Shown: positions 8,502 through 45,806 of the stretch, piece by piece
Numbering within the stretch: the stretch's first letter is position 1
How the letters are laid out: every line of letters starts with the position of its first letter
NCBI GenBank assembly: GCA_964471235.1
Contig: CAYYGL010000001.1
Span: 5,315-69,314 of the forward strand
Source of the DNA: an uncultured Calditrichaceae bacterium
GTDB taxonomy: Bacteria; Calditrichota; Calditrichia; RBG-13-44-9; J075
DNA length: 64,000 nucleotides
Direction of reading: 5' to 3'
Made by a program: the position numbers and the translations under genes
Notes under the pieces: generated by a model
The model's database searches: none
What the model was told of the DNA's origin: nothing
What the model saw: only the letters and a program-made list of their open reading frames with translations

Positions 8502-8638
8502 AACAAACGTAACGATTTAGCTATATGCCCTGTTTTTTGTGGCGGGAGGGGGTGGGTGAGGTTAAAAAACAACCCCTTAACCACAAATAAGCTCTGAGGC
8601 ATCTCAACTTCAGCAAGCATCATGGCAATTTTTTGGGG

Positions 8639-8667
8639 TTGATTTATCAGCGACAATCGACTATATT
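8639..8667 (+). promoter_or_regulatory. Candidate promoter for the tRNA (TTGATT-17-TATATT)
   Basis: A -35-like TTGATT at 8639-8644 and -10 TATATT at 8662-8667 lie about 25 nt upstream of tRNA position 1. Confidence 0.35.
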
Positions 8668-8691
8668 CTCAACGCTTTTTACGGAGCATGT

Positions 8692-8765
8692 GCGCCCGTA
8701 GCTCAATTGGATAGAGCATCGGACTTCGGATCCGAGGGTTGGGGGTTCGACTCCCTCCGGGCGTG
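8692..8765 (+). tRNA. tRNA, anticodon read as TCG (Arg)
   Basis: The 74-nt cloverleaf has acceptor GCGCCCG/CGGGCGT, D-stem GCTC/GAGC, anticodon stem TCGGA/TCCGA with loop CTTCGGA (anticodon TCG), T-arm GGGGG-TTCGACT-CCCTC, and discriminator G. CCA is not encoded and a T-run follows. Confidence 0.8.
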
Positions 8766-8947
8766 CAATTTTTTTGTACGGCTTTGTGATGCGGTACTCA
8801 GTGGCTGAATGGGTTTGGAAAAAGATGCGGTTATCACCTTATTTACCTTTGCTTTCATCATTCCGCTCTTCCTGCCGGTGACGCCCTCACAACCCCGTCA
8901 GGTTTAATAATTCAATTATCATCTCAAGTTAACATGAAGGATTTCTC

Positions 8948-9646
8948 ATGAAAAAGTTTATGGTAGCAGTACTGTTGCTGGTATTTGCAGCCTGCCAGCA
9001 AAATAATTCAAGTGGTGGCAATGTTAGCCTTGCCAGCCAGAACGACAGCCTGAATTACAGCCTGGGTGTCGAAATCGGGAAAAACTTAAAACCGATTGCC
9101 GAAGACATTAAGGTGGAAGTGGTGATGCAGGGGATTCGGGACGGCCTGGCAGGCGGCGATTTGAAATTAACCGACCAGGAAGTGAAAAAAAGTTACCAGG
9201 CGTTGCAGCAAAAAATGAATACCAAAATGCAGGAAGAGCGCAAACAATTGGCTGAAAAAAACAAAACCGAAGGCGCTGCGTTTCTGGAAGAGAACAAAAA
9301 GAAAGAGGGCGTGGTAACCCTGCCAAGCGGTTTACAGTACAAAGTGCTCAAAGAGGGCAAAGGTCCCAAGCCCAAGGCGGATGATACCGTCATCGCCCAT
9401 TACGTTGGGAAGCTGTTGGACGGCACCCAGTTTGACAGTTCTTATGACCGCGGAAAACCGCTGACCATCCAGGTGAACCGGGTGATTCCCGGCTGGACAG
9501 AAGCCCTGCAACTCATGCCGGTGGGATCCAAATGGGAACTCTATATTCCCTCGAATTTAGCATACGGCGCCCGGGGCGGCGGCTCTGTCATTCCCCCCAA
9601 TGCCACCCTGATCTTTGATGTGGAGTTGCTGGATATTAAAAAGTAA
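8948..9646 (+). CDS. FKBP-type peptidyl-prolyl cis-trans isomerase, lipoprotein (FkpA/FklB-like)
   Basis: Lipobox LLLVFAAC. A coiled N-terminal domain is followed by a C-terminal FKBP domain (VIAHYVGKLLDGTQFDSSYDRGKP...IPGW...GSKWELYIP..LAYG). Confidence 0.85.
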   Translation: MKKFMVAVLLLVFAACQQNNSSGGNVSLASQNDSLNYSLGVEIGKNLKPIAEDIKVEVVMQGIRDGLAGGDLKLTDQEVKKSYQALQQKMNTKMQEERKQLAEKNKTEGAAFLEENKKKEGVVTLPSGLQYKVLKEGKGPKPKADDTVIAHYVGKLLDGTQFDSSYDRGKPLTIQVNRVIPGWTEALQLMPVGSKWELYIPSNLAYGARGGGSVIPPNATLIFDVELLDIKK

Positions 9647-9750
9647 ACATTGATGACACTGATATCGGCGCAGGCGTTTCCCCTGGCATCCTCCATGGGA
9701 AACACCTGTGTCTTAGAGAAGACAACCAAAGGATATGTTTCTTGACCTCG

Positions 9751-10323
9751 TCAATTGTCCCGCTGTTCAAACAGTTCCACCCGATCAAAACAGGTAAAGC
9801 CCCCCACGTTTTCTGTTCCACCGCCGGAAATCACTACCGATAAACTATCTCCTTCGTTGATCACCAGTGTATCCCGTAAGGTGTATTTTGTCCAAACAGT
9901 ATCTGTCACTATCTGTGCTGCGGTTACATCTCTTGTCTGATCTGTTTTGAGAATAAACATTGCCACTCCGTTGATAATATAGAATTTGCCATAAAATGAG
10001 AGCTCCAGAATATGCTTACCCGGTGGGAGTGGAACAAAATAAGCCGGGGAGTCCGGCAGGGGGCCAAACCATTCCGCTGGCAGGCAAATTGACCAGTTAC
10101 CACCACCGGGCGGGGTATCGTTGGAAAAGGAAATGCTATCGTCCTCCTGAACATACCAATAGGATAGGGAAGGATTGCCATTCTCCTCAAACGAGGAATT
10201 TTTAATCAGGTTTGCTGAGGTGCCGTGGGGAATCCCCAACGGAGCGGTTTTTTTTTTGCAGCCTGAGTTGCTTAGAAAAATGAATAACACCAAACCCGGG
10301 ATTAAATAGAACGATTTCATCAT
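9751..10323 (-). CDS. Hypothetical lipoprotein
   Basis: Signal peptide with lipobox (LSNSGC). 190 aa, no recognisable family. Confidence 0.45.
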   Translation of the reverse strand: MMKSFYLIPGLVLFIFLSNSGCKKKTAPLGIPHGTSANLIKNSSFEENGNPSLSYWYVQEDDSISFSNDTPPGGGNWSICLPAEWFGPLPDSPAYFVPLPPGKHILELSFYGKFYIINGVAMFILKTDQTRDVTAAQIVTDTVWTKYTLRDTLVINEGDSLSVVISGGGTENVGGFTCFDRVELFEQRDN

Positions 10324-31203: not shown

Positions 31204-31752
31204 CTATTCCTCACTTTCGTCTAAATATTTTCCCGGGTTGCGATTAAAATCCTCGGATTTGCCTTTTGGAATACTCAACGACTCCCAGGCGTCGCCGGTA
31301 AAGTGTTTCGCCAGGAAAACGATTTGTCCCACATGGTAAGCATAGTGAGAGAGCTGTCGAAGCAGCGCCTGGCTAACCAACAGCGGCTCCCCGCGAATGG
31401 TGATGGTACGGCTTAAATCCGCTGGCGTCAATGTTTCCAGGGTATTGGTTAGAATTTGCCATCCGGTTTCCCATTGCTTATGGAGGTTGTTAAAATCATC
31501 ATCTTGGGTAATTTCAAACTCCATATCCCGGTGACGATCCGGCTTCTCACCGTCGGTAGTAAGAAAATCGCGCCAGCGGGATCGCATATTGCCGGCAAGG
31601 TGTTTCATGATCACCGCAATCGAATTGGATACCTCCTCATTCAGGGAGTCGAACATCTCTTCAGTGTTTACCTGGGATATCGCTCCATCTGCCAGTTGAC
31701 GCAGCCGGGAAAATTCCCGACGAATATCGGTTAAGAATTGCTCCAGATTCAT
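31204..31752 (-). CDS. DinB-like/DUF1572 family protein, translationally coupled to the upstream helicase
   Basis: HYAYHVGQIVFL C-terminal motif, as in the 20367 paralogue. Its ATG overlaps the helicase TGA (ATGA) at 31749-31752. Confidence 0.55.
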   Translation of the reverse strand: MNLEQFLTDIRREFSRLRQLADGAISQVNTEEMFDSLNEEVSNSIAVIMKHLAGNMRSRWRDFLTTDGEKPDRHRDMEFEITQDDDFNNLHKQWETGWQILTNTLETLTPADLSRTITIRGEPLLVSQALLRQLSHYAYHVGQIVFLAKHFTGDAWESLSIPKGKSEDFNRNPGKYLDESEE

Positions 31753-34121
31753 ATTTTACCTCCGGTTGGTTTGTCGATAACGGGCAGGGATTTCCGTTTG
31801 TGCAGGGGCACTCCCTGCGAGTGAAATATCGTTATCTGTTGTGTATTGAATTCCAGCAAATAGTGTTGAATGATTAATTCCGCAAGATGTTGAATTCTTT
31901 CCACATCGGAAAAAGTGTTGATAGTCAACTGTTCCGGTAGGGCATAAATTTTTTGCCCGTCGGCTTTTAATATTTTTGGCAAAATCTCCGGATGGATAAT
32001 GAGATGATACAACTGCTGGGCAGATTTAAAGCGCAGTGTTTCCAGGTAAAGGCGATCCCAATCCACCACATCCCAGATATCTTTGTTGACAGCGACCGGT
32101 TTTGCACGGGATACTCCGGAGTTTCCTACTCCCTCTGATGTGATTTGTGAAAAAACCGGACGGATATCAACCCGGAGCTTTTTCAGGATGTTATTGTTCA
32201 CGGAAACTTCTACTGCCGGTGCGTTCCCGTTTTCTGAAGAAACAGGTGGTGTTATTGCCGGCTCCAAAGCAGGTGTGGAGGATGTGCCGGGTCGATCCGT
32301 TCGCTTATCTCTTCCGTTTGTCTGAATCCCTTCTTTGACAATGGCGTTCAAAAAGGCGTTCATATAATCTGCGTTCAGTCCGTAAATATAAAGTGTTTGT
32401 AAGCAGGCGATTTCCGGGCGGGCAGTGGCTTCTCTCCTCAGAGAAAAATCTTTTCCTTTCAGGCGAACCCCTCTACCGAATAGCTGAATAATCTGGGGAC
32501 CTTCTCCTTTTCCCATGTTCATCAATACCATGGTCGAGACCCGCCAGCTATTCCACCCTTCGATAAATTTTTTTGCACCGATAAGCAGGTTGATGGGAGA
32601 ACGGGCAGTATTGATATCCTCAAACAGGGAGGCGGAAAAGTAATCCGGTTTCACCTCGATTCCATTGCTTGCCAGCAGTTTTTTGAGCGGCGCAACATTT
32701 CCAACATGGATAATGCCGAAATAATTCCCGGCTCCGTTGGTTTTCAATCCTAATTCTCCATCGCCATGTAAAATTTCGTAAACTTCAAGTTCCCCGCTCC
32801 CATGAAATACCAGCCGGAATAACTTCTCCTGTTGTGCCTGCCGATCATCCGCTGGGGAATTAAGCAAGTCACCCACAGGGAGATTTGCCGGTATCGCCGA
32901 TAGAATCCATTGGATGTGTTCCCATAATCGCCCCGGATCATGAAGAATTTTTTTCGGGGACATCGTGATTGAGAGGATGTCGGAATCCTGCTTTTTTCCC
33001 GCCACCCGGCTGCCCACAAACACCCAGAGAGGTTTCTCAAGCTGGTAAGTGTTTATATCGATTTCTCCGGACTGAAAAAGGGAAAGCTGCCGGTAAAAGG
33101 TTGACAGTGCCCCGGACAGCACCCCCTGTTGCACTTCCGGTGTGTAGTGATCTTTATGAAGGTTCACCGCCTGGAACGCCTTGCCATACCTGTCTTCATA
33201 GAAAAAACGGTAAGAAAAATCAAAAATAATGGATTTGGCATATTCCGAGAGTAGAAAGCTATTCTTGCCGATTACCTGGGCAAAAGTAGCACTGTATTCG
33301 ATAATTATGCCCTGGGTTGCCAGTTTTTCCCGCAGGGTCTTCCAGCGTTTTTCCTCGGATTTCTGCCCCTTATGCCCCTCATCGATGAAAATGAGGTTTT
33401 TCCCTTCAAAAGCCGCGACATCCACCCTTACCCCGCCGGAAAGTTTTTGGTCCATCAACTTGTGAATGTCGATGACCAATACCTCATTTCGGCGGGTATA
33501 AAGGTTGTCCGGGTTGCCGTCATATAACTTTGCTGGTATGCCGCTCAGTTGATACTCCTGCCAGTGTTGACGGGACATACCTTCGTTTGGGGTGATCAGC
33601 AAAATATTATCCCAGGTGAAAGGGGTATAGTGCAGCACCTGCCAGTAGTTGATGTGCATAATCAAAGTTTTACCGCTGCCGGTTGCCATCCAGTAGGCAA
33701 TTTTGTGTAGGTCCGGTTCATGAAATGGCGGAATTGACTGCGAATGACGTCGATTAAATTCTTCTAAAAACAAATTTAAGTCGGATAAAAAGCCGGAGAC
33801 ATCGGTAAACAACCGGTCAAAATAGATTTCGCTGAACAGGGCTGCCAACTGCTGGAAGTATTTCAATCGGAATTGGGGTTGTTGACGATTGGCGCGCAGA
33901 CGGGATTGGTAGGAGTCAATCGATTGTTGGTAGTTGAATAATTTTTCCGGTGATAGTTTAGAACGCCCGCTTTGTTGTAAAGCATCCCAGAACGTATCAT
34001 GGAACTTAACGGATGAAACAGGGGAGGGGAGAGGGAGTATTGCTCTCAGGCGAGCAAACTCATCCACCCCGAGTAAATCCAGGAAAAAATGAAACAGGAC
34101 CAGGTGTTTTTGTAATTTCAT
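31749..34121 (-). CDS. SF2 helicase, ResIII-type (type III restriction Res-subunit-like) with DEGH box
   Basis: Motif I WMATGSGKT, motif II IFIDEGH, motif III YSATF, and motif VI QLFGRGVRL. It has a ~145-aa N-terminal and ~240-aa C-terminal extension without an obvious PD-(D/E)xK motif. Confidence 0.75.
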   Translation of the reverse strand: MKLQKHLVLFHFFLDLLGVDEFARLRAILPLPSPVSSVKFHDTFWDALQQSGRSKLSPEKLFNYQQSIDSYQSRLRANRQQPQFRLKYFQQLAALFSEIYFDRLFTDVSGFLSDLNLFLEEFNRRHSQSIPPFHEPDLHKIAYWMATGSGKTLIMHINYWQVLHYTPFTWDNILLITPNEGMSRQHWQEYQLSGIPAKLYDGNPDNLYTRRNEVLVIDIHKLMDQKLSGGVRVDVAAFEGKNLIFIDEGHKGQKSEEKRWKTLREKLATQGIIIEYSATFAQVIGKNSFLLSEYAKSIIFDFSYRFFYEDRYGKAFQAVNLHKDHYTPEVQQGVLSGALSTFYRQLSLFQSGEIDINTYQLEKPLWVFVGSRVAGKKQDSDILSITMSPKKILHDPGRLWEHIQWILSAIPANLPVGDLLNSPADDRQAQQEKLFRLVFHGSGELEVYEILHGDGELGLKTNGAGNYFGIIHVGNVAPLKKLLASNGIEVKPDYFSASLFEDINTARSPINLLIGAKKFIEGWNSWRVSTMVLMNMGKGEGPQIIQLFGRGVRLKGKDFSLRREATARPEIACLQTLYIYGLNADYMNAFLNAIVKEGIQTNGRDKRTDRPGTSSTPALEPAITPPVSSENGNAPAVEVSVNNNILKKLRVDIRPVFSQITSEGVGNSGVSRAKPVAVNKDIWDVVDWDRLYLETLRFKSAQQLYHLIIHPEILPKILKADGQKIYALPEQLTINTFSDVERIQHLAELIIQHYLLEFNTQQITIFHSQGVPLHKRKSLPVIDKPTGGKI

Positions 34122-34289
34122 CGCAAGCTTATATCATCATTCGGATAATTATAACTTTATGTCAATTCGATATAAAAAAATAGAACGCGGATGGACCCGG
34201 ATGACCCGGATTTTCGCAGATTTTTTTGATATGATAACCAATCATCCATGTAAATCATCATTTGGGTTCTATGTCAAGTTACGTCGAAC

Positions 34290-35111
34290 TCACGTTAACT
34301 TATTTAAAAGCCAATCGCCCAGGAATTTGTCAAGTGTCATTTTGTGCATCTCATTATATCCAAACAAAATTCTCTGTTCCTTGCGATGGGGGTCGAAGAA
34401 TGCCGGCGAGCGCACCGCTAACTTTCTCTCCTGCATAAAATTGTAAATATAGCAGGTGGTTGTGTCCTGTTCCGGTAAAAACATCAGGTAAAAGCGAAAA
34501 TTTTTCAGCATCTCCGGGTTAACAATATCCGTAACAATTTCCCGAAACGAAAGATATTGCCCATGCCCGATGCTGCCGCCTCCCTGAGTATAGAGCTTTT
34601 CTTCCAGCAATGTCAACCGATTATCGGCTTCGTGAAAAATCAGAAAATCAATGTCAGTGCTGGCAACCCTGCCGTACATATTCAGGCGTAAAAATTTGCT
34701 TAATGACGATACCCGGGCACTTTCCCTGATCGTTGCGGTGCTGGGTTGCCACTCTTCTTTGCCATCACACTTTAAGACTTGTAATAAAAATTTTGCCAGA
34801 TGGTCCGGATTCTCAAATGACTTTTGGGTGGCGGCTTTTAAGCTTCGGATATGGATTCGGTCCTCTTCCCAGAAGATGTTTCCCAGTCGCAATCCAGCGG
34901 TAAAAAATGGTGCTATCTGCAGTAAGGCATTGTCCTCAAACTCCCTCTCACTCTTACATTCTTTCAGCAAAATATATCGGGAAGCCGGATTCGGATTAAT
35001 CCGATGGAGGCAGGTGGCAAAGAACAAATTGCGAAAAATCCGAAAGTCAAAAATTGCATTCAAACGACTGGGACGGGTGCCATAAATTTCATCTTTTACC
35101 GGTTTTGCCAT
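34290..35111 (-). CDS. Hypothetical protein (273 aa), first gene of the AT-rich block
   Basis: A long ORF co-directional with its neighbours. It is AT-rich with no recognised motifs. Confidence 0.45.
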   Translation of the reverse strand: MAKPVKDEIYGTRPSRLNAIFDFRIFRNLFFATCLHRINPNPASRYILLKECKSEREFEDNALLQIAPFFTAGLRLGNIFWEEDRIHIRSLKAATQKSFENPDHLAKFLLQVLKCDGKEEWQPSTATIRESARVSSLSKFLRLNMYGRVASTDIDFLIFHEADNRLTLLEEKLYTQGGGSIGHGQYLSFREIVTDIVNPEMLKNFRFYLMFLPEQDTTTCYIYNFMQERKLAVRSPAFFDPHRKEQRILFGYNEMHKMTLDKFLGDWLLNKLT

Positions 35112-35175: not shown

Positions 35176-35709
35176 TTAAGTTAAATTGGGTACCCAAACT
35201 GAAAAATATTTTAGCCTAAAGTCAATATCCATTTTTATTCCGGCATCCACAAGGCAGTTAATACCTAATATGGGGCGCGCTTCTTTCCATTCATTACGGT
35301 AAGAATGATTGAAAATAGCTGCTCCACCATTCACATCAATGCGATAAGGATAGTTAGCAAAATTAGGCAAATTACTGCACAACCAGAGCGTTAAATCACG
35401 CGTGGGTTTTCGAGTCATGCTGCCATCCGAAAGTTCTACATCCACGAGACCGCCGATAGGACCACTGAGTGAAATACCTACTTTCGAAAGAGTCTCCTTT
35501 GTTATAATGGCATGGCTACAACCGGTATCGATCATAAATTCTATTGCCGGGGCTCCCATGGGAGGTGTATCAACAAATGGTTCGGAAATGAGCATCAAAA
35601 CCCGAATTTCGTTAAAAGATTTAAGGGATTGGTCACTGGATCTGAATTTAGCAAATGGCATTTTATGAATAAACAAGTTCATGATCTTATCCCTCCTGGG
35701 TGACAACAT
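35176..35709 (-). CDS. Retropepsin-like aspartic protease (clan AA, single-lobe, presumably dimeric)
   Basis: The catalytic FMIDTGCSHAII (hydrophobic-hydrophobic-D-T-G-S) and the downstream ILGINCLV match the retroviral-protease ILGxDxL flap/closing motif. 177 aa. Confidence 0.6.
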   Translation of the reverse strand: MLSPRRDKIMNLFIHKMPFAKFRSSDQSLKSFNEIRVLMLISEPFVDTPPMGAPAIEFMIDTGCSHAIITKETLSKVGISLSGPIGGLVDVELSDGSMTRKPTRDLTLWLCSNLPNFANYPYRIDVNGGAAIFNHSYRNEWKEARPILGINCLVDAGIKMDIDFRLKYFSVWVPNLT

Positions 35710-36382
35710 TTATGTATCTCCGTAAGTCAAGAGGAGGAGGTAATGGTTCAATTCGTCTTACCAAAATTTCATTCAAATTATAATTTTCTTTTTTTAAGAC
35801 TTTATATATTTCTTTTTTTGACGGTTCAATAGCTATTCGAGATTCTCCTCGGTAGGCTACCCATTTACCGGGTGCGGTTTCCATAAGCAATGGAAGTTCT
35901 TGTTGAAATTTTTCCCATCCGATTGATTGGAATTCAGATAGTAACAACGTATCGAACCGTTTTGTGATACGTTCTATCGTAAAATCGATGAGTCGATCTA
36001 TCTCCCGGGTTTGAAAAGGGGGAGATTCTTTAACTTGTTTTAATAAGTTCAAATCTTCAACTTCACCACATTCACACATCCACCACAGCGAAGCAATGAA
36101 ATCTTCTTCTGTTGCCGGAGAAACTAAATCTAACCGGCGAGTGAGCTTCTCATAAGTGAAGGGAATAATATGCCATTCTTTTTCAATTTTTTGCCATTCG
36201 TTATTGCTGCAATGTTTGGCGCTGTGAATTATGCCTGAAAGGCAACTTCCGATTAATGTGGCGACCTGGCGTTCGAAGTCCAATTCTTTTTCCGGAAGGA
36301 TATATTTTTCGCTTACTTGGATTGCCTGATGAAGATTGCTAAAGAGTTCCTGAACTCCCGGGGGGTTATGAAGTGAGATCAT
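35687..36382 (-). CDS. Hypothetical protein (231 aa) overlapping the retropepsin-like gene start by 23 nt
   Basis: The ORF shows operon-style overlaps on both sides. It has a Cys-containing segment WWMCECGEVED and no recognised family. Confidence 0.45.
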   Translation of the reverse strand: MISLHNPPGVQELFSNLHQAIQVSEKYILPEKELDFERQVATLIGSCLSGIIHSAKHCSNNEWQKIEKEWHIIPFTYEKLTRRLDLVSPATEEDFIASLWWMCECGEVEDLNLLKQVKESPPFQTREIDRLIDFTIERITKRFDTLLLSEFQSIGWEKFQQELPLLMETAPGKWVAYRGESRIAIEPSKKEIYKVLKKENYNLNEILVRRIEPLPPPLDLRRYINVVTQEG

Positions 36383-36384
36383 TT

Positions 36385-36804
36385 TTATCTTTTTCCCTTC
36401 TCATTTTTGTTTAATATGTTGTTAATCTCTTCAACCAACTCAAACTCTAATAAGTTTATTTTTCTGAAGAACCAACAATTTTTTTCTGTATAAAATTTCT
36501 CAGCGATGTTCGGATCAGCTACATGGGTAAAAATAATCACCGGAAGAGTTTTATTAACCTCCCTGATTTTTTCATAAAAACGAATTCCGGTACGAAATCC
36601 CATCTGTGTGTCATCCAGGTTAAAGCTCTTTCCTGGCGGCATCATAATATCCAAAATTATTAACTCAATTCTTTTAGAATGTTCTGTAAGAAAATAAAGA
36701 GCATCATCCACATCCGTGCATAATTTAACTGAATAACCGGACTCTTCCAATTCCATAATATAGTTCTCCATTCTTCTTTTTTCGTCATCAACGAAAAGTA
36801 TCAT
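36385..36804 (-). CDS. Stand-alone response-regulator receiver (REC) protein
   Basis: ILFVDDE and LIILDIMMP (phospho-acceptor Asp) and a conserved T and K further on. 139 aa, no output domain. Its start overlaps the kinase stop by 17 nt. Confidence 0.75.
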   Translation of the reverse strand: MILFVDDEKRRMENYIMELEESGYSVKLCTDVDDALYFLTEHSKRIELIILDIMMPPGKSFNLDDTQMGFRTGIRFYEKIREVNKTLPVIIFTHVADPNIAEKFYTEKNCWFFRKINLLEFELVEEINNILNKNEKGKR

Positions 36805-39800
36805 GGGGGAACTCCTTTAATCTTTTGGGAATTAAAACATGAAATTCGGTTGGCTTATACCGGTTTTTTAAAATTAAATCCCCCCCCAACTCCTGCATTG
36901 TTTTTTTAGCGATTGGTAATCCCAATCCAGTGCCTGCCACATCTTTATTTATCGCTTCCGGCGTGCGATAACCTTCTTCAAAAATTTTTTCTTCATAACT
37001 CTTACGAATCCCAATACCCCAATCTTTAAACTTGATAATATAATACTCCCGGTCTTCATCTAAATCAATTCGGATCGCAAATTTTTCAGGGTCATCTTCT
37101 GCGTATTTTATCGCATTTGTCAATAGGTTGTGAACAACAGAATTCAATTTGGAACGATTTACGTAAATTTTTATTTTATGGGCATCTTTTACGTTAAAAT
37201 AAATTTTTTTGTAATCAAGCCCCTTACCCACTACCAACGGATTGAACTGCTTAATTGACTTGATGATAATATCACGGTAAACAATGGTGCGTTCCTTTTT
37301 AGAACTCGGCGATTCACCGCCCAGTAAATGTTGTATCTCCTCTATTTTCAATTTTAATATTTCACAATCTGTCAGTATATCATCAAGCTTGGCTTTATAA
37401 AGGTGAGATGGGAGGTTCGGCAACCTTCGTTTTAAGAAAGATGTGTTGCTTCTGATGCCACCAAGTGCAGAATTAAATTCATGTTGAATTTTTTCCAATA
37501 ATAGTTGTCTGTGTTGCTCCAGTGCTTTTACACTATATTCCACTAATCCTTTTAAGATTTGAACATCTCGTTCATAAATATATTTACGATAACCTTTTTG
37601 ATAGCCTGCTTCTACCGTTCCCATGACCTGGTTCTTTTTTGCGGTTGCAATCATCGGAATATAGACTCGTAACAAGCGATCATGATGGAACCGCTTATAA
37701 ATATGAGTATCATATCTTTTGTCATCACTCCCCGGTGCCTCAATTTGTCTATTCCTGACCACATCTGCCTGGATATCGTTACTGTTCAAGGAGTGAATTG
37801 CTAATTGTTTGAAGATTTCTTTTTCTTCATCCGGGATCCCAACCACATATTCAGTTTGAATCCTATTTAGCTCTGGAATGACAAACGAAATGTTTACATA
37901 TTCATATCCCAACGTTTCGGTAATGGCTTTTGAAACAATTTGAACAATTTCAGTTCGGTCACTGGTGCCAACAATCTCCTTCTCAAATTGTGCCATCTGG
38001 GTTAATTTCTGGTCGAAATCTAATTTCTCGAACATAATAGCAGCATGACGGGCTAAAGACCACAAAATCACCTCATCGGATTTGGAAAATGCATTGAGGG
38101 CAGGGCTTTCAATATTCAACACACCAATCGGTTTTGACCCCCATCGAATTTCTTTTCCCACCCGAACTTCAGCATTGGAAATCACTATCGGAACTGCTAA
38201 TTCGGAACGGGTATCATCCCAACATTTAACGTAAATATCCTTCCACTCACTGCTATGGACATTTCCCACTCGGATAGGTCGTTCGGCGGACAAAGCCTTC
38301 CCGGTAATTCCCCGACCTAATTTAAGAGAATGTTTTCGGGGAGGTGAGCCACTGTATTCAACCAGATGTAATAAGCCGGTTTTAAAATCCAGCCGACTCA
38401 CCCAACCTCTTTCCGAGTCTACCAATTTTAATCCTTCATCCAAAACCAACCTCAACAGTTCGTTGACATCTCGTGTTTCTGCCATTTGTTTAATAACTTT
38501 ATTAAGCTTTTGAAACCGGCGTCTGCTGTTTAAATTTTCAATGGCAACCGAGGTCTGTAAAGCCAGGGTTTTGAAAATGTTTTTATGCCATTTGGTAAAA
38601 TGACGTTCATGTTGGAACGAATATACTTCAATAATGCCAATTACTTTTTTTCCATAGGATAATGGCATTGCCAGCATGGATTTCCAACCTAAATTTTTAA
38701 CTAATCTGTAATAAGGATGAGTCTCTATGACACTGGCATCTTCCAGATAGTAAGGTTTGTTTTTCAGTAAAAAGCGGGTTAAACATTTACTATCATTTCG
38801 TAGTACCAAATCCTTAAGGGGGGCTCCCTGCCCTTCCGGGATACTGTATTCTGAAACTACGAAACCATCTTTATTCTTATCATGTAGCCACACAATACAG
38901 ATTGGTTCGCTCATCAAATCTTGGGTTAAATTCACCACCTTTTTTAATAATACATCCAATGATTCTAAATGAGTCATCAATTCCGGTAGCTGGAGCAATA
39001 TATCGTTTAGCATGGCTTGCTCAATCGCCAGAGCTACTTTCTGAAGCACTTTTAGTAGGGATGGAAAATCATCCGAGTTAAAAGCATCCGGTTTACTTTT
39101 TCCTACACTCACCGTAGCAATAACAGCATCTCCTGACTTGATAGGAGCACAATAAATTGAATCACCAATATTAAACCCGCCATATTTGGGGTCAGTGGAA
39201 GCATTGCGACAGTAATAAGGTTTTTTAGTTTTTGCAACATATCCTGCAATACCCTTTTCTATAGGAAACGAATGTTGAATTTGAGTGCCAATCCGGGGAT
39301 ATATGGCTTTAAGTTCCAGTCGATTGGTGGCTTTATTCCAAATTCTCAAACAACACGAATCGGCGTTGGTTATTTTTGCACAAGTTTCGACAATTCGGCT
39401 CAGCTTTTGCTGAAATTCCCCGGCATCTACATTTTCATAAGAGATTTCAGCGGAAGTATCTAACAATTGAGATTGGTATCGTAAAATTTGACTTTCGCGC
39501 ATTAATTCGGCTTTCTGGATTGAGAATGCAGCGTGATTGGCAAAAATACCGAATAATTCCTTTTCCCAAACTTTAAAATGGCGTTTGGTTTTGGTATATA
39601 AATTAAGCATGCCAATTAACTTCTCTTCTCCAAACCACATTGGGGCACTCAAAAGCGATATCCAACCTCTCTGTTTTGCTTCGCGAGGATGACTATACAT
39701 AGAGTTCGGTTTGGTAACGTCTTCAAGATACCCAACTTTTTTACCGGTTAAATGTTGTTGAATCCCTGGAAAATGAATATCCAATTCCAGTTGTTTATAT

Positions 39801-40540
39801 TCTTCGTCCACTTCTCCAGTGGTTGCAACAATCTTCAATTTGGTTAAGCTGGCATCCAACATCCAAATGATACAGATTGGAACGGAAAGTAATTCGGAGG
39901 CTTTTTCAGAAACTATTTGTAAAAATTCATGAGGTGTTAAATTCTGCAATTCACGGGATAATGAATACAATATGCTTAGAGTTCTTTCCAACATTCGTAG
40001 ATAATCAAACCTTTCAATAGTCAACACAGCATGTCTAGCAAAAGATTCGAGAAGATGAATTTCATCCGGGGGAAATTTCTGTAGTGTGTTGGAAAAATGA
40101 TTAAAATAGCCGATGAGATGATTGTCACTTTTTAAAGGGTATGATAAAACTGATTGTAAATCATACCTTACGGCTATTTTGGGATTAGCTACACCTTGAC
40201 CAGATTTTTGTAGATTATACTTCTCTATAATTTCTCCGGAAGCGAATAAATTATAATCAAGAGAAGTCGATTTACCTGATGAACTGTTTGTTCTGGTATT
40301 CCTGAACGTGTAATATGCATATTTTTTAAAATGATTATCAAAACCGGCACAGGCGGCAAGTTTCAAAGTCTTGGTTTCTTGATCAATAAGAATGAGTGTG
40401 CAGGCGTGGGAATGAAGGGCTTTTTTACCCAATTCTGTTAGTCGATTCAGTGCCGACGCTTTATCTTTATATAGAATCGGTACTTTACTTAACTCATTTA
40501 TGAGATCTACAAAATCGATTTGTTGAGTAGAGGTCCCCAT
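36788..40540 (-). CDS. Sensor histidine kinase with multiple tandem GAF domains (about five) and C-terminal HisKA + HATPase_c
   Basis: 1250 aa with repeated GAF-like modules. It carries an H-box (…QHEFNSALGGI…), N-box NLLTNAIKYA, G1 DWGIGI and G2 GTGLGLPI. There is no TM segment, so it is cytoplasmic. Confidence 0.85.
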   Translation of the reverse strand: MGTSTQQIDFVDLINELSKVPILYKDKASALNRLTELGKKALHSHACTLILIDQETKTLKLAACAGFDNHFKKYAYYTFRNTRTNSSSGKSTSLDYNLFASGEIIEKYNLQKSGQGVANPKIAVRYDLQSVLSYPLKSDNHLIGYFNHFSNTLQKFPPDEIHLLESFARHAVLTIERFDYLRMLERTLSILYSLSRELQNLTPHEFLQIVSEKASELLSVPICIIWMLDASLTKLKIVATTGEVDEEYKQLELDIHFPGIQQHLTGKKVGYLEDVTKPNSMYSHPREAKQRGWISLLSAPMWFGEEKLIGMLNLYTKTKRHFKVWEKELFGIFANHAAFSIQKAELMRESQILRYQSQLLDTSAEISYENVDAGEFQQKLSRIVETCAKITNADSCCLRIWNKATNRLELKAIYPRIGTQIQHSFPIEKGIAGYVAKTKKPYYCRNASTDPKYGGFNIGDSIYCAPIKSGDAVIATVSVGKSKPDAFNSDDFPSLLKVLQKVALAIEQAMLNDILLQLPELMTHLESLDVLLKKVVNLTQDLMSEPICIVWLHDKNKDGFVVSEYSIPEGQGAPLKDLVLRNDSKCLTRFLLKNKPYYLEDASVIETHPYYRLVKNLGWKSMLAMPLSYGKKVIGIIEVYSFQHERHFTKWHKNIFKTLALQTSVAIENLNSRRRFQKLNKVIKQMAETRDVNELLRLVLDEGLKLVDSERGWVSRLDFKTGLLHLVEYSGSPPRKHSLKLGRGITGKALSAERPIRVGNVHSSEWKDIYVKCWDDTRSELAVPIVISNAEVRVGKEIRWGSKPIGVLNIESPALNAFSKSDEVILWSLARHAAIMFEKLDFDQKLTQMAQFEKEIVGTSDRTEIVQIVSKAITETLGYEYVNISFVIPELNRIQTEYVVGIPDEEKEIFKQLAIHSLNSNDIQADVVRNRQIEAPGSDDKRYDTHIYKRFHHDRLLRVYIPMIATAKKNQVMGTVEAGYQKGYRKYIYERDVQILKGLVEYSVKALEQHRQLLLEKIQHEFNSALGGIRSNTSFLKRRLPNLPSHLYKAKLDDILTDCEILKLKIEEIQHLLGGESPSSKKERTIVYRDIIIKSIKQFNPLVVGKGLDYKKIYFNVKDAHKIKIYVNRSKLNSVVHNLLTNAIKYAEDDPEKFAIRIDLDEDREYYIIKFKDWGIGIRKSYEEKIFEEGYRTPEAINKDVAGTGLGLPIAKKTMQELGGDLILKNRYKPTEFHVLIPKRLKEFPHDTFR

Positions 40541-40617: not shown

Positions 40618-41397
40618 TCAGTTACCAGGGAAAATTAAAGGTAGTTCAACATTAAGTTGGTTTGTAGTTGTTGAAAACGTACCAACTTTTATCTTAAGCG
40701 AATCAAATTCAAAAAAGACACTTAATCCTTCAGAATCGGTTCCCGTTAAATTCTGATTTGGTATTAATAGATGAAGGGTTAACTTACCCTTTTCGTCAAT
40801 GGAAAATCGTACAATTTGAAAGTGGATGTCACAGTGTGTAATTTCCGTCACGACACGTACTTTGATATGATGGGGAATAAAACATCTATCATCTAAAATT
40901 TTTTCTTTCTGCAAATGATAAATCCTGGCACTTGCTACACGCATTACCGGAAAAGGGGTTGGTTCTACATCAGAGATTGGTTCTACATCAGAGAATAGAG
41001 AGCTTGTAGTAGATTCGCATACTAACCATTTATAAACTTCATGTAATATTTCCCTGGCAGATGTGTCATTTTGTTTTGCGCGGTTTATCAAATCGATTAG
41101 ACTACTTTTTCTTGCTTCGTTTAGTTTTTCAGCCATTTCAATTTGTTCAACTGTTTTTTCCGCAAGTGATTCAATTTCCCTTTGCGAGAAAGTCGGTTCT
41201 TTTTCAGATTTAAATGGCTCAAATAATAACTCGCCTGCAACTTCCGTTTGAATCGCCTTTGCAATCTGTTTTCGAAGTTTCGGATACCTACCAAAATAAT
41301 AATCAATGTTTTTAGATCCACCAGAACGTTTTGCCCTGATGTATTCATCGACGATTTTAGTAATCTTATCAGGTTTATAGACACTATTCCGGCTCAT
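40618..41397 (-). CDS. Hypothetical protein overlapping the sigma-factor stop (candidate anti-sigma / partner protein)
   Basis: The 14-nt overlap with the sigma-like gene is typical of sigma/anti-sigma pairs. It contains a perfect 18-bp tandem duplication (40959-40994, SDVEP repeat) and no recognised domain. Confidence 0.4.
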   Translation of the reverse strand: MSRNSVYKPDKITKIVDEYIRAKRSGGSKNIDYYFGRYPKLRKQIAKAIQTEVAGELLFEPFKSEKEPTFSQREIESLAEKTVEQIEMAEKLNEARKSSLIDLINRAKQNDTSAREILHEVYKWLVCESTTSSLFSDVEPISDVEPTPFPVMRVASARIYHLQKEKILDDRCFIPHHIKVRVVTEITHCDIHFQIVRFSIDEKGKLTLHLLIPNQNLTGTDSEGLSVFFEFDSLKIKVGTFSTTTNQLNVELPLIFPGN

Positions 41398-42388
41398 GTT
41401 TGTCCTGCTTATTATTTCCGATAATAACTTCCTTCTCTAAAAAATTATAAATTTTACGACGAACTAGATGAGCATTTTTCGTATCCCCGGCTATTTGGGC
41501 ATACGTCTTCAAATGTAGGAAATGTTGGGTTGCTTTAGCGGAGGCAGAATTCGTTGAGACCGAGGTAAAAGAAATTACAATTTTTCTATTTGAATATGCA
41601 GAAAACCATTTTTTTTCAAATTCCAGCGCGTTTTTTAATGCTTGGTGGTTCCCGTCTATTACTGGGAATAAGTCTTTCAAATCATTCATCGACAGAATTT
41701 TAGCAGTTCGTAAGGATTGGCAATATTCATCAAGAATATCGGTAATTATAATATCTTGTAATTTTTTTTGAGCTCTCTGTGTCCTTTTGCGAATCGTCGC
41801 TGGGTTGATATCTTGAAACACATAAGCGATTTCTTCATAGGTAAATTCTTCACAAAATCGAAGCAATAACAAACTCCTGTCCTGATGAGGAAGACGTTTC
41901 AGAAAATTATTTAATTGGATTTTTTTTCTATCTTGTAAATCATTATGTACAGTATATGCAAGGGGTTGATTTTCTAACTCCCCCTCAACCATTTCTTTTT
42001 CAATATCCCGATCACGAAAGTTGGGATTATCTAAAGATATTACGATCAGATGTGGTTTTCTTTTTCGGGCGGTAAGGATTTGTTTATTACAAATCCAATA
42101 CAACCATTTCTTAAAATTAGTACCCAACTCAGTTTCGTCTATATCTTCAGGTATAGTAAAAACCTCACGTGCTTTCCATGCCTGAAGAAAAGTCGCCTGT
42201 AATATTTTACTGGTATCAAACTTATCAAATCCTGATCTGGTAATAAAATTCTCCAATTCTGCACCGTATTTTTTAAACAGATAAGCAAAGCACTGTTTGT
42301 CACCTTCCTTAAAGCCCCTAATTATCTCAATTAAGGACATAGGCGTTCTCCAATGTTGTATTTTGATCCACTTGCCTGAACCCCACAT
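41384..42388 (-). CDS. ECF-type sigma-70 family factor with ~130-aa C-terminal extension
   Basis: Region-2-like FLQAWKAREVF and region-4 HTH LLLLRFCEEFTYEEIAYVFQDINPATIRKRTQRAQKKL. The start is possibly at an internal Met. Confidence 0.6.
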   Translation of the reverse strand: MWGSGKWIKIQHWRTPMSLIEIIRGFKEGDKQCFAYLFKKYGAELENFITRSGFDKFDTSKILQATFLQAWKAREVFTIPEDIDETELGTNFKKWLYWICNKQILTARKRKPHLIVISLDNPNFRDRDIEKEMVEGELENQPLAYTVHNDLQDRKKIQLNNFLKRLPHQDRSLLLLRFCEEFTYEEIAYVFQDINPATIRKRTQRAQKKLQDIIITDILDEYCQSLRTAKILSMNDLKDLFPVIDGNHQALKNALEFEKKWFSAYSNRKIVISFTSVSTNSASAKATQHFLHLKTYAQIAGDTKNAHLVRRKIYNFLEKEVIIGNNKQDKHEPE

Positions 42389-42710
42389 CCCTATACCGGG
42401 AAGGCTGTAAATACGTTATTCCTTCCGTGGAGAGTTATGTTTAAAACTCGGTCTGGAAATTACTCATGAAGTATAATGTTATTGTTTTTTTAAAATACAC
42501 TCTTCCCAAAGAAAGAAAAAGAAAAAATACTTTTTACAACTACTTTATAACTATCAACTACTTTTTATTATGTGTGACATATTTTGTAGTATTATTTTTT
42601 TATTTTCCCTTATTCATCTAATCTTAATCCATTTCTGTGGGAATCAGTCCCATCCGTGAAAAATAAGACTATAATTAATATAGAGTATGTAAAATGGGGA
42701 AGGAGCGTAT

Positions 42711-42971
42711 ATGTTCTTAGAAGGTTCATTCAGAAGTTTTTTGGCAGGAAATATTTTTGGGTTGCTTTGGGGCTTCTCCGGTGTTATCGGGAGACGACTT
42801 TTGCAGATTTTTTTTGCTGTCTGTGTAATTGTGGTTATTGTTTTTATTGTTTTTGAGGGAATGGATGATGTCGTAAGTCTTTTCGAGTGGATGTTTGACC
42901 AATTACTAAATTATGTATACTTTGCCATGGGCGTAGTGAATGGTATGTTGATCTCCTATCGGCGCACATGA
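42711..42971 (+). CDS. Possible small hydrophobic protein (86 aa) in the AT-rich leader region, opposite strand
   Basis: Two predicted TM helices. It lies inside a ~700-bp AT-rich non-coding stretch and could be spurious. Confidence 0.2.
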   Translation: MFLEGSFRSFLAGNIFGLLWGFSGVIGRRLLQIFFAVCVIVVIVFIVFEGMDDVVSLFEWMFDQLLNYVYFAMGVVNGMLISYRRT

Positions 42972-43094
42972 AAGTTTGTTAGTTCTAGGTGTTATACTGG
43001 AGTGTGATGGAAGTGTTTTTGCTATCGTAACCTCTTTTGAAATACAATTTTTTCCATTGAGAAATTCCAGAGTTCCAGTCAACAGTATCGCTGT

Positions 43095-45806
43095 TCAAAA
43101 CACAGGCTGACTGCTTTCTTTCATCACTCCTTCAATACTCTCCACACCCGCTAAAGCACAATCGCCATTGATAAAAACACGCCTGTCGGAATATTCCCGG
43201 AGAATGTCGGTAAGAAACTGTTTCTCTGCCTCATAATCCAGGTTGTCTGCCACACGCCAGATTGTGACAACCGGCTGTTCTTGCAGTTTCCCGGTTACAA
43301 ATAAATATCGACGGTTCTGATGGGGGCGAGCAAACACCTGTTCCACCTCTATCCCCAGCCAATTTACAAATGTTTGCACCAGGTCGATTGTGGCGGTTGA
43401 GGAACCCCCGGCGCGGAACAAATTCAACTTGTATTCAAACGGATTGCGCATTCGGTTGATATTCAAAAACGTTGGGCTTTGCCGGGTCTCGCTGGAGAGC
43501 ATATACCGGACGGTGTAGTCCGGCAACTCAGTTAACATGTTCGAAGAATTGCCAAATGTTATGTTTTCAAGCGCATCTTCAAATTGTTCCAATCCCTGGT
43601 AACAGAAAAACCCGCCGCCTTCCCATCCTAAATCCCGGGAAATTTTTCCCGGATCGCCATGCAGCACTTTTTTCATTCGCGGTAAGATGACCGAGTAAAA
43701 ATGCTCTCCCATCTCCACCCCCACCCATTTTCGTTTCATTTTCTGCGCTACGGCAATCGTAGTGCCGGAACCCAGGAAGAAATCCATCACCCATTCCCCG
43801 GGCATGGTGGAAGATTCTATCACACGTTGCAGTAAGGCTTCGGCATTTTCGGTGGCAAAATGATGCCGTTGGGCATACCCGGGAATGTCCAACCACTCAT
43901 TGCCGACCATCTCGCTATCATATAACAACTCCGGCACTCCTTTTATCGTATTCCCGAAGCAATCCACATAACTTTTTTCCGGGTTGATACGCACTTTATT
44001 GCGGGCGATCAGCCGGTCGATTCGCTGCTGAGAAAGCGCCCAGCGGCGGTTCCGCGGGGGATAATAGGTTCTTCCCAGTATTTTCCGGGGACGCTCATCC
44101 TTGCGGGGAAAATGGAGCAGAGGGTACCAGCGCGGGGGGGTCGGGCGTTCCACCGGGTTCGGCTTAAACCGGGGGGATTTGGCATATAAAAACAGAGTCT
44201 CGGTTTTCACGGTAAACTGGGTATCCACCTGCTGTTTTGCCAGGGTGCGATTCACGATAATCTCATTGCGGAAATTATCTTTCCCGAAAAGACGGTCCAA
44301 CATCAAACGGGCATACATGGTTCCATTGTAGTCGCAACGCAGAAACAAGCAGCCATCGGACCGCAGTGATGAATGAGCCAGACTTACCCGGTTCTCCAAC
44401 ATGGTTATCCAGGTGGAATCTTTATACCCCACTTTATACAGGTAATCCGCTTCCTGTTCTTTATTAAAGGGGGGATCAATATAGATGCATTTGATTTTCT
44501 CTTTCAAAAGCGGTGAAATGGTATTTAAGGCAGTCCAGTTTTCACTGTTCCATACGTAACCATCAATGATGTCGGCTAACCGATGGTTTGCTGATAGTCC
44601 TTCCAAAAGCTTTACCTTAAACGACTCATCGAAGAAACGGGTATCAATCGGAAGGTGCTGCCATGTTGGTTGATATAGCAACATTTCCAGTGTTTCCCGT
44701 ACCTCGCTGTCGAAGTGAAAACCGAATAAATCCCGCCATTCCCTTAATTGTGCTGTATTATCGGCAAGCTGTTCTACCACCCACCCCCACAGGTCATTGC
44801 CAGCATAGTGTTGAATGTGGCTGAGGCTGATGACATAATCTGTGCTGAGCACGAAACTTCTTTTCTCCCAGACCTGTTTTTGAAAATCCTCGATTTGCCC
44901 CAGCATTTCAATGACTTTAGCAGCAATGGTATGTACGATCGTTGCCAGATGAAGTTGATAGCGAAGATTGCTCTCGGTCAGAGTGGGGAAATTGTCAAAA
45001 TTGAAAATCTCGGATTTGATATAAAAATCCAATTCGGTTATCAGAAAATTTGCCAGATCCTTGTGGATGAAATAATCCTGTTCATTTTTTCGGGTAAAAC
45101 GGGATAAGTGCTCCGCCAATGTTCTCAGGAAATCATCCGCTACATTGCCGGGTAGGGGGAGTTGGGGGAGTGAGTTTCGAAAAGCTTCCAGAACAGAGGC
45201 ATTGATGTGTTTCTGGGTGATTTTTCCGAAATGCTCCCTCTCCGCTTCTTTCGGGGATCGAAATTCAAAGTAAAAATGAAGTTGGTTTTCCTGAATTTCC
45301 CATGCCGGCCGGGAAAGGAAAAAATATTGTTTATGAGTGCTTTTTATGTTCCCATGAAAAGCCTCTGCCTGCACGATCCGAAATGAGATTTCCCATCCAT
45401 CGTGGGTAAAGCGGTAGCTCTGGAAAAACGGGCTGGATTTAATAAAATACTGATCGTGATTGATCCAGTAGAAGGCAATTTCTTCCCCGTTATAAGGCAG
45501 GATGTACTTATGTTTTTTGCCATAACGCCGTTGGGGAATAAAATCTCCCCCATGATAATAGCGAGAGAAAAAACGAATGAGGTGATTGTAGACCTCGCCC
45601 TCCGGTTCAGCAGCTTTCGGGGCGTCCCGGGTGAGTTTCGGTAAATGCTCCTGAATAAATCCAACCAGATCCTGATTGATAAAGCGCAGAATTTCTTCCC
45701 GCCGATAGCGGATGATTCGATAGATTCCGAAATCCAGATCCGGTTCATTCAGATAGAAAAGGGATTGCAACAGGTTCAAAAATTGTTCTCGGAGAGGTTC
45801 GCTCAT
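43095..45806 (-). CDS. Beta-class N6-adenine/N4-cytosine DNA methyltransferase (type III Mod-like) with 440-aa N-terminal extension of unknown function
   Basis: Motif IV IYIDPPF precedes motif I WVMDFFLGSGTT (beta permutation), with ~240 aa between them as a putative TRD. The N-terminal 440 aa have no recognised motif. 903 aa. Confidence 0.8.
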   Translation of the reverse strand: MSEPLREQFLNLLQSLFYLNEPDLDFGIYRIIRYRREEILRFINQDLVGFIQEHLPKLTRDAPKAAEPEGEVYNHLIRFFSRYYHGGDFIPQRRYGKKHKYILPYNGEEIAFYWINHDQYFIKSSPFFQSYRFTHDGWEISFRIVQAEAFHGNIKSTHKQYFFLSRPAWEIQENQLHFYFEFRSPKEAEREHFGKITQKHINASVLEAFRNSLPQLPLPGNVADDFLRTLAEHLSRFTRKNEQDYFIHKDLANFLITELDFYIKSEIFNFDNFPTLTESNLRYQLHLATIVHTIAAKVIEMLGQIEDFQKQVWEKRSFVLSTDYVISLSHIQHYAGNDLWGWVVEQLADNTAQLREWRDLFGFHFDSEVRETLEMLLYQPTWQHLPIDTRFFDESFKVKLLEGLSANHRLADIIDGYVWNSENWTALNTISPLLKEKIKCIYIDPPFNKEQEADYLYKVGYKDSTWITMLENRVSLAHSSLRSDGCLFLRCDYNGTMYARLMLDRLFGKDNFRNEIIVNRTLAKQQVDTQFTVKTETLFLYAKSPRFKPNPVERPTPPRWYPLLHFPRKDERPRKILGRTYYPPRNRRWALSQQRIDRLIARNKVRINPEKSYVDCFGNTIKGVPELLYDSEMVGNEWLDIPGYAQRHHFATENAEALLQRVIESSTMPGEWVMDFFLGSGTTIAVAQKMKRKWVGVEMGEHFYSVILPRMKKVLHGDPGKISRDLGWEGGGFFCYQGLEQFEDALENITFGNSSNMLTELPDYTVRYMLSSETRQSPTFLNINRMRNPFEYKLNLFRAGGSSTATIDLVQTFVNWLGIEVEQVFARPHQNRRYLFVTGKLQEQPVVTIWRVADNLDYEAEKQFLTDILREYSDRRVFINGDCALAGVESIEGVMKESSQPVF

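Follow-up and report, generated by a model that had tools for sequence, protein, structure and literature searches.

A rare histidine kinase, receiver and adaptor module with exchangeable effectors, a probable conflict system set within a Type III restriction-modification locus of an uncultured Calditrichaceae bacterium

Single-domain response regulators such as CheY, DivK and CpdR act via protein partners; CpdR, for instance, is a ClpXP adaptor and controls a protease. RES toxins degrade NAD+ or modify Prs. A gene pair composed of a RES toxin and an Xre protein, COG5654-Xre, has been described among toxin-antitoxin (TA) systems (PMC2701414). Conflict systems that combine adaptor domains with swappable effectors are known as well; they are built on STAND or MoxR-vWA NTPases and are enriched in multicellular or complex bacteria (Kaur et al. 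2020, 2021; PMC7159879, PMC8195603). The nearest described counterpart of the locus studied here is Detocs (DtcA/DtcB/DtcC), a defensive two-component system whose effector DtcC is a receiver fused to a killing domain, mostly a PNP ATP nucleosidase, and whose stand-alone receiver DtcB was proposed to act as a buffer; the kinase sensor of Detocs from V. alginolyticus contains TPRs (Rousset et al., bioRxiv 10.1101/2023.01.24.525353). In this work we analyzed a stretch of 64,000 nucleotides from an uncultured Calditrichaceae bacterium (contig CAYYGL010000001.1 of assembly GCA_964471235.1), hereafter the window, to which all positions without a locus name refer. It carries four consecutive genes on the minus strand that encode a sensor histidine kinase, a stand-alone receiver (REC), an adaptor and a putative effector. 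We consider it reasonably probable that these genes form a rare and mobile signal-gated toxin module, presumably a conflict system of the abortive-infection or TA-like type. All functional statements made below on this module are drawn from comparative genomics.

The kinase gene (36788..40540, minus strand) encodes a cytoplasmic protein of 1250 amino acids (aa), and its ATG is preceded by a strong ribosome-binding site, AAGGAGG. The coordinates and strand of the kinase and REC open reading frames (ORFs) were confirmed by an ORF check of the window. An earlier note, based on the sequence of the same stretch, had described a cytoplasmic kinase of this length with about five GAF modules ahead of a HisKA/HATPase region, and this description holds. 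No convincing transmembrane segment was found in the kinase, the top 19-residue Kyte-Doolittle score being 1.62 and located in a GAF strand. Pfam matches comprise five GAF stretches and HATPase_c (E=5e-16). When the protein was scanned as seven segments, segments 1-5 gave significant GAF matches, residues 840-1010 remained without a Pfam match, and the HisKA match ahead of HATPase_c was weak (E=0.028). Profile-profile comparison of sub-alignments identified modules 1-5 as mutually related GAFs at 94-99.9% probability and added a sixth, divergent module at residues 855-1003, which is weakly GAF-like (65%, E=6e-5, versus GAF3) and is the best-conserved part of the sensor region. The resulting domain order, supported by Pfam and the family alignment, is GAF1-5, the sixth GAF-like module, a DHp with H1020, and HATPase_c; NCBIfam kinase models cover residues 1003-1238. 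H1020, N1138/N1142, D1173xGxG1177 (DxGxG), F1187 and G1203xGxG1207 (GxGxG) are invariant in 47 members of the family, i.e. the conserved DHp histidine and the N, G1, F and G2 boxes are all present and the catalytic motifs are intact.

The gene of the dedicated 139-aa receiver (36385..36804, minus strand) shares a 17-nt overlap with the kinase ORF. Response_reg is the only Pfam domain of the protein (E=1e-13, 51.7 bits versus a cutoff of 30.2), in agreement with its earlier description as an overlapping REC-only protein. Residues D6, D7, D52, T93 and K115 are invariant among 13 orthologues, so the acidic pocket (DD), the phospho-acceptor Asp (D52), the Thr/Ser and the Lys are all in place. The same orthologues share a family-specific insertion after beta3 with conserved F61, T66, G69 and G73. 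Weak NCBIfam matches were obtained to the CpdR and DivK families. The strict co-conservation of kinase and REC described below, together with the 17-nt overlap of their genes, argues for a cognate partnership. The proposal of the earlier note that an output-less receiver of this kind points to signaling via protein-protein contacts is likewise supported. One further REC gene is present in the 64-kb window, a stand-alone CheY-like receiver of 130 aa at 190-582 on the plus strand, 36 kb from the module; it belongs to another REC subfamily, scoring 26.7 bits on the family hidden Markov model (HMM) versus 217 bits for the REC of the module.

The third gene (35687..36382, minus strand), which had previously been overlooked, starts 2 nt after the REC stop codon and encodes an adaptor of 231 aa. 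The protein consists of a helical N-module, spanning approximately residues 10-169 with a conserved core at about 60-145, and a small beta/alpha C-module of the DUF5678 type at about 148-225. The fold of the N-module is HEAT-like, and we conclude that it is a HEAT-like protein-binding scaffold. The family alignment contains no invariant His or Asp in the N-module; the candidate role of the adaptor as an Hpt or other phospho-acceptor domain was ruled out by this absence and by the HEAT-like fold. A Foldseek search of the adaptor against PDB returned no significant match, and a homologue search with the N-module alignment returned only proteins of the window itself. The window adaptor does not match Pfam DUF5678 (PF18929) at E<=0.01; its closest homologue, L175_255, reaches 24.7 bits versus the cutoff of 23.2, in an alignment that runs through the C-module. 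No description of DUF5678 function turned up in open-access full texts. Among 112 N-module proteins, the C-terminus is DUF5678 in 21, the Xre/MbcA/ParS C-terminal toxin-binding domain in 12 and HEAT repeats in nine, while fused effectors are TIR in seven and subtilase in four.

The kinase belongs to a rare family of ~49 clusters among 5.8 billion, with 34-56% identity and a clear boundary in the cluster search, where scores fall from ~700 bits to less than 90 bits. Its members fall into three length classes of roughly 1250, 925 and 765 aa. Twelve independent loci were compared, namely the window and 11 sister loci: L001, L002, L004, L005, L006 (from Nostoc), L166, L167, L168, L169, L174 and L175. 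In all 11 sister loci, a ~140-aa receiver of the same REC subfamily overlaps the kinase end and is followed by an N-module gene. In all 12 loci the N-module HMM had its match immediately after the receiver gene, also in two loci outside its training set (E=1e-13 and 1e-25), and it gave no match in ~160 unrelated kinase loci (roughly 2 Mb). These control loci are the by-catch of earlier kinase-alignment scans of genome and metagenome contigs, reused as negative controls; the scans were driven by generic HATPase motifs and are uninformative on family rarity. Among the contig-scan matches listed, the Nostoc locus is a true family member and no other was present. The kinase HMM gave 951-1625 bits for members versus at most 137 bits for other kinases, and the REC-subfamily HMM 175-221 bits in family loci, while all remaining receivers in 2.3 Mb stayed at or below 33 bits. 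No further REC or Hpt-like gene is conserved across the 12 loci. Conservation of the kinase, REC and adaptor N-module as a trio is thus strict. The earlier interpretation stands as far as cytoplasmic kinase-receiver signaling is concerned; the pair is, however, no stand-alone two-component system, since the adaptor follows it in all 12 loci.

Signaling genes are duplicated at several sister loci. Two kinase-REC pairs were found in L005 (10001-17447). L166 (10001-14598) has a full-length kinase and a 306-aa kinase without GAF, each with its own REC, and L168 (10176-11028) has two REC genes in tandem.

Across the 12 loci, a change of the adaptor C-terminus goes along with a change of the gene that follows, an exchange of effectors that the earlier note had missed. 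In L001, L004 and L168 the adaptor ends in an MbcA/ParS_C-type domain and the next gene encodes a RES or TIR-RES toxin. A DUF5678-type C-terminus is followed by a protein of 163-176 aa with an invariant DTG in L002, L005, L167 and L169, and by a DTG protein of 177-188 aa in the window and L175. In Nostoc (L006) and L174 the adaptor is fused to a Peptidase_S8 domain (subtilase), with no separate next gene. The adaptor of L166 has HEAT repeats, and no effector was identified at this locus. In L175 the module is followed by HEAT-repeat and ADP_PFK_GK-like (ADP-dependent kinase fold) genes (7682-10317). The adaptor N-module is fused to HEAT-repeat and ADP_PFK_GK-like domains in a 963-aa protein, P0113. 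Because the domains encoded downstream in L175 are the same as those fused to the N-module in P0113, the two cases suggest a further output type besides the listed toxins.

The next gene in the window encodes a putative retropepsin-like aspartic protease, recognized by motifs and profiles. Its ORF extends to 35709 and would yield 177 aa; however, an AGGAGGG ribosome-binding site lies within the 3' end of the adaptor gene, ahead of Met10, so the protein is most likely 168 aa with its start at 35682 (35176..35682, minus strand), as other pipelines likewise call it. The catalytic D61-T62-G63 lies within the motif FMIDTGCS (residues 58-65) and is followed by a flap-like GPIGG and a C-terminal ILGIN; the catalytic triplet is invariant across both DTG families. 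A homologue search with the 177-aa ORF returned only proteins of the window, while a full-length homologue occupies the equivalent position in L175 (33.5% identity over 167 residues, E=2e-30). The link to a protease that the earlier note had considered gains from this arrangement, as both the window and L175 carry the conserved adaptor and a DTG protease after REC. The top PDB match of the single sequence is ApRick (Rickettsia APRc, PDB 5c9b). With a two-sequence profile, retropepsins account for seven of eight PDB matches (best E-value 0.035), and the alignment with HIV-1 protease includes DTGAD as well as the flap GGIGG. RSV protease is matched (E=2e-4) by the 163-aa DTG family that four sister loci carry. 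Comparison of the window protease with this family gave a probability of 12.7% for the single sequence and of 60% (hhalign, E=8.5e-5) for the window/L175 profile; full-length homology between the two was rejected, as only the active-site segment aligns.

The module resembles Detocs in its cytoplasmic histidine kinase operon, stand-alone receiver and modular swappable effectors, and in the killing that phosphotransfer is proposed to trigger. The differences lie in the architecture, as the earlier note had anticipated for known REC-based defence systems. No effector in the 12 loci carries a REC, the sole receiver stands alone, and a separate HEAT-like adaptor is present. GAF domains in tandem make up the sensor, and RES, TIR, subtilase and retropepsin-like proteins take the place of the effector. 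A PADLOC scan gave no Detocs-named model and only partial matches to HATPase (PDC-M43B) and REC (SduA, PDC-M60) components, the presence of Detocs models in PADLOC-DB 2.0.0 being unconfirmed. Because the receiver-effector fusion is absent and these matches are generic, the module is not a member of Detocs.

Other described systems share single elements with the module. As in the Xre-RES TA systems (COG5654-Xre; MbcTA, ParST), an Xre_MbcA_ParS_C domain is paired with a RES toxin in L001, L004 and L168. Here, however, the N-terminal Xre helix-turn-helix (HTH) of the antitoxin is replaced by the HEAT-like N-module, no HTH being found in the sister adaptors with an MbcA/ParS C-terminal domain, and the pair is subordinate to kinase and REC. 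The window copy has instead a parallel DUF5678/DTG-protease pair, and its cassette has no Pfam match to RES, Xre HTH or MbcA/ParS_C. With CheY, DivK and CpdR the receiver shares the REC-only structure, intact phospho-acceptor chemistry and output by protein-protein interaction; in contrast to them, it belongs to a distinct subfamily with the beta3 insertion, is tied to a specific kinase and adaptor, and is coupled to toxin-type effectors rather than to housekeeping machinery. The putative protease resembles clan AA proteases (Rickettsia APRc, retroviral) in its DTG, flap-like GxxGG and C-terminal hydrophobic-Gly motifs, their order, and a mostly-beta length of ~170 aa. ApRick and the HIV-1 and HTLV proteases are its best PDB sequence matches. 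However, it scores below curated thresholds, has no membrane anchor or polyprotein context, and has a DUF5678-type partner in a signaling operon. The NTPase-centred systems likewise combine a sensing or signaling core with adaptor modules and interchangeable TIR, peptidase and repeat-domain effectors, and our module also has a member in Nostoc, but its core is a genuine kinase-receiver pair. No kinase-RES/TIR defence system was found described in open-access full texts, although a description elsewhere is possible. The module is best classed among defensive or toxin-controlling two-component signaling systems, as a variant with a new architecture.

A possible course of events can be proposed for the window copy. 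The GAF array would sense an intracellular cue, e.g. a small molecule or a signal that stems from an invader. The kinase would then autophosphorylate on H1020 and transfer the phosphate to D52 of REC, whose phosphorylation state would alter its binding to the adaptor N-module. The DUF5678 C-module, which would otherwise hold the protease inactive, would in turn free or activate it, and the released proteolysis would arrest or kill the cell. In sister loci the MbcA/ParS_C C-module would play the role of DUF5678 toward its own effector. The sign of the switch may be either, with phospho-REC releasing or restraining the effector.

The genomic setting of the window copy is a Type III restriction-modification (R-M) locus. 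The methyltransferase gene mod (43095..45806, minus strand; PADLOC MTase_III, E=9e-143) lies upstream and the gene of the helicase subunit Res (31749..34121, minus strand; PADLOC REase_III, E=1e-97) downstream, on the same strand. The two are not adjacent but 8.97 kb apart, whereas methyltransferase and Res-like helicase genes lie 2-6 nt apart in two annotated relatives (33-36% identity). The six genes from an extracytoplasmic function (ECF)-type sigma factor through the protease have a GC content at third codon positions (GC3) of 0.27-0.38, versus 0.50-0.53 for mod (0.53), res (0.51) and a gene of a 273-aa protein (0.50). Because of this contrast we infer that a foreign cassette of ~7.9 kb, whose position had also escaped the earlier note, was placed between mod and res, the window copy having arrived by horizontal transfer.

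Among the sister loci, integrases or transposases flank four. Defence genes adjoining these loci include a SIR2 protein resembling ThsA/Dsr1, TIR effectors and a defence-type reverse transcriptase, and CHAT and NACHT-like genes also occur beside them. None of the 11 sister loci lies next to an R-M system.

Several observations weigh against a signal-gated toxin module. The binding of REC to the adaptor, and the binding and inhibition of the protease by DUF5678, are modeled on the MbcA/ParS_C-RES pairs and are thus proposed by analogy. The identity of the protease remains putative, resting on motifs and on profile matches below threshold: Pfam Asp_protease_2 gave E=1.1e-3 and 20.1 bits versus the cutoff of 24.3, NCBIfam clan AA matches are likewise sub-threshold, and, because a single-sequence AlphaFold2 model reached a pLDDT of 33, the retropepsin fold is unconfirmed. 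Apart from generic HATPase or REC domains, the module has no match among PADLOC defence models. The neighbors of several sister loci are purely housekeeping genes, e.g. dnaA/dnaN beside L004, and for this reason a defence role is putative. Finally, the neighborhood comparison covers 12 loci, next to ~200 other adaptor relatives.

Some of these points would suit an ordinary physiological two-component pathway, in which a metabolite-sensing GAF kinase and a CheY/DivK/CpdR-like receiver steer proteolysis or development via the scaffold, with no role in conflict. Action by protein binding is well documented for single-domain receivers (CheY, DivK, CpdR), NCBIfam relates REC weakly to the CpdR and DivK families, some sister loci have housekeeping-only neighbors, and HEAT-only adaptors exist. 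Nevertheless, we regard such a pathway as rather unlikely: the output slot is filled by swappable known toxins (RES, TIR-RES) with a cognate antitoxin-type domain, or by fused TIR or subtilase, and the family is rare, patchy, low in GC in the window and often located beside integrases and defence genes. The module could also be a classical addiction-type TA system that stabilizes a mobile cassette, its kinase and REC tuning the antitoxin to host physiology and having no anti-phage function. The MbcA/ParS_C-RES pairing that sister loci share with Xre-RES TA systems, the mobile-element genes nearby and the low-GC cassette all speak for this view. It is unlikely all the same, for a multi-sensor kinase of 760-1280 aa would be an unusual investment for addiction, adaptors fused to TIR or subtilase leave no separable antitoxin, and bona fide defence genes are found among the neighbors; moreover, it departs from a conflict module in biological role alone and not in mechanism.

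Two further alternatives concern the roles of single parts. Like DtcB in Detocs, the stand-alone REC could be no more than a sink for phosphate, or it could be a relay intermediate, the real output being a response regulator or Hpt elsewhere. Such a buffer receiver does exist in Detocs (bioRxiv 10.1101/2023.01.24.525353), and the duplicated REC genes of L168 and kinase-REC pairs of L005 and L166 would accord with this role. It is improbable, however, given that the 12 loci share no other conserved gene of the REC or Hpt-like type, that the adaptor has no invariant His or Asp, that the REC subfamily co-evolves tightly, is translationally coupled and has a conserved insertion of its own, and that the other window REC (190-582) is of an unrelated subfamily and 36 kb distant. 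As the sole receiver in the window operon, the 139-aa REC cannot be a mere buffer for another receiver. Alternatively, the cassette might be an insert that regulates the Type III R-M system on either side of it, for instance by gating Res expression or activity. Its location exactly between Mod and Res on the same strand and its sigma factor fit such a role, which is nonetheless highly improbable, as no sister locus adjoins an R-M system (0/11) and the GC3 of the cassette is foreign to the R-M genes. Promoter-like sites directly upstream of Res also speak against such a role, although the promoter and terminator scans did not exceed shuffled expectation, with 33 promoter-like sites in the region versus 28.4 +/- 5.1 after shuffling.

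We therefore retain the signal-gated toxin module as the preferred reading; it appears to be a hitherto undescribed type of cell-suicide or anti-virus system under signal control. A stronger form of this reading, which we advance tentatively, is that the module represents an undescribed phosphorelay-gated immune or suicide class, in which a HEAT-like adaptor, and not a receiver-effector fusion, unleashes swappable toxins and in which DUF5678 and the retropepsin make up a new antitoxin-toxin-type pair. Detocs, which works by receiver-effector fusions, is the sole defensive two-component family we found in the open-access literature. If the proposal is true, a second and architecturally different family exists, phosphotransfer was recruited to conflict systems more than once, and a free receiver can control toxins via a dedicated adaptor. 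DUF5678 and the retropepsin-like protease would then be a new type of antitoxin-toxin pair, with bacterial retropepsins acting as cell-killing effectors. The module ties the Xre-RES TA pair to upstream signal sensing and yields hypotheses for the HEAT-like N-module, DUF5678 and small bacterial DTG proteases. It also offers a tractable four-gene operon for asking which cue the tandem GAF array reads in infection or stress, and its cassette within a Type III R-M operon would be a clear example of nested defence genes.

The remaining genes of the cassette appear to be local. The ECF-type sigma factor (41384..42388, minus strand; GC3 0.32; TIGR02937, 61.6 bits versus a cutoff of 42.9) has a C-terminal extension of ~120 aa, and its gene is overlapped by 14 nt by that of a 259-aa protein (40618..41397, minus strand; GC3 0.27) without matches in Pfam, NCBIfam, PADLOC, PHROGs or PDB. 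Both were considered as conserved parts of the module and ruled out, since homologues occur in none of the 11 sister loci; they are local companions, and the link to an ECF sigma pathway raised in the earlier note is not borne out. Within the 259-aa gene we noted a perfect 18-nt tandem duplication (40959-40994) that encodes SDVEPI/SDVEPT.

The 273-aa protein encoded between protease and Res (34290..35111, minus strand) has no family or PDB matches and no homologue in the sister loci. Its host-like GC3 suggests that the gene belongs to the R-M locus and not to the cassette. The window Mod aligns full-length to homologues, whereas Res (790 aa) lacks ~250 C-terminal residues of the homologues in the two annotated relatives. 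The 273-aa protein contains a D..EEK-type motif, DIDFLIF..LLEEK, and on this motif and the host-like GC3 it could be a detached nuclease; its derivation from the Res nuclease domain is without sequence support (blastp E=2.3). At the ends of the cassette no convincing terminal repeats were found. The 273-aa gene and the cassette are together bracketed by an imperfect direct repeat of 19 nt (17/19 identical; 34209-34227 and 42796-42814), which could be left over from an insertion site but could equally have arisen by chance, the DNA being AT-rich. Mod and the sigma gene are separated by a gap of 706 bp (42389-43094) that is AT-rich (GC 0.34) and contains an ORF on the plus strand (42711-42971) for a strongly hydrophobic protein of 86 aa without family matches. 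No Rfam RNA families were found in the 31-47.5 kb region of the window. The remaining window genes are housekeeping, e.g. those for UvrA, an MMPL transporter and transketolase.

Two recurrent neighbors of the module were noted among the sister loci. A gene of ~415 aa with an XRE-type HTH and an NTP_transferase domain lies beside the module in five of the 11 (L002:8652-9959, L005:4563-5807, L166:8515-9699, L167:1790-3040 and L169:9405-10664). The proteins of L002 and L005 are 43% identical, and the HTH resembles PADLOC capH/control-protein models. This gene is absent from the window, where the upstream slot is occupied by the ECF-type sigma factor and the 259-aa gene. In L005 (5867-9882) and L167 (3270-7241), a pair of genes for a G6PD-like protein (515 and 529 aa, respectively) and a NACHT/STAND-like NTPase (812 and 784 aa) is located between the HTH-NTP_transferase gene and the kinase. 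The two genes may form a conflict system of their own or serve the kinase module as an accessory.

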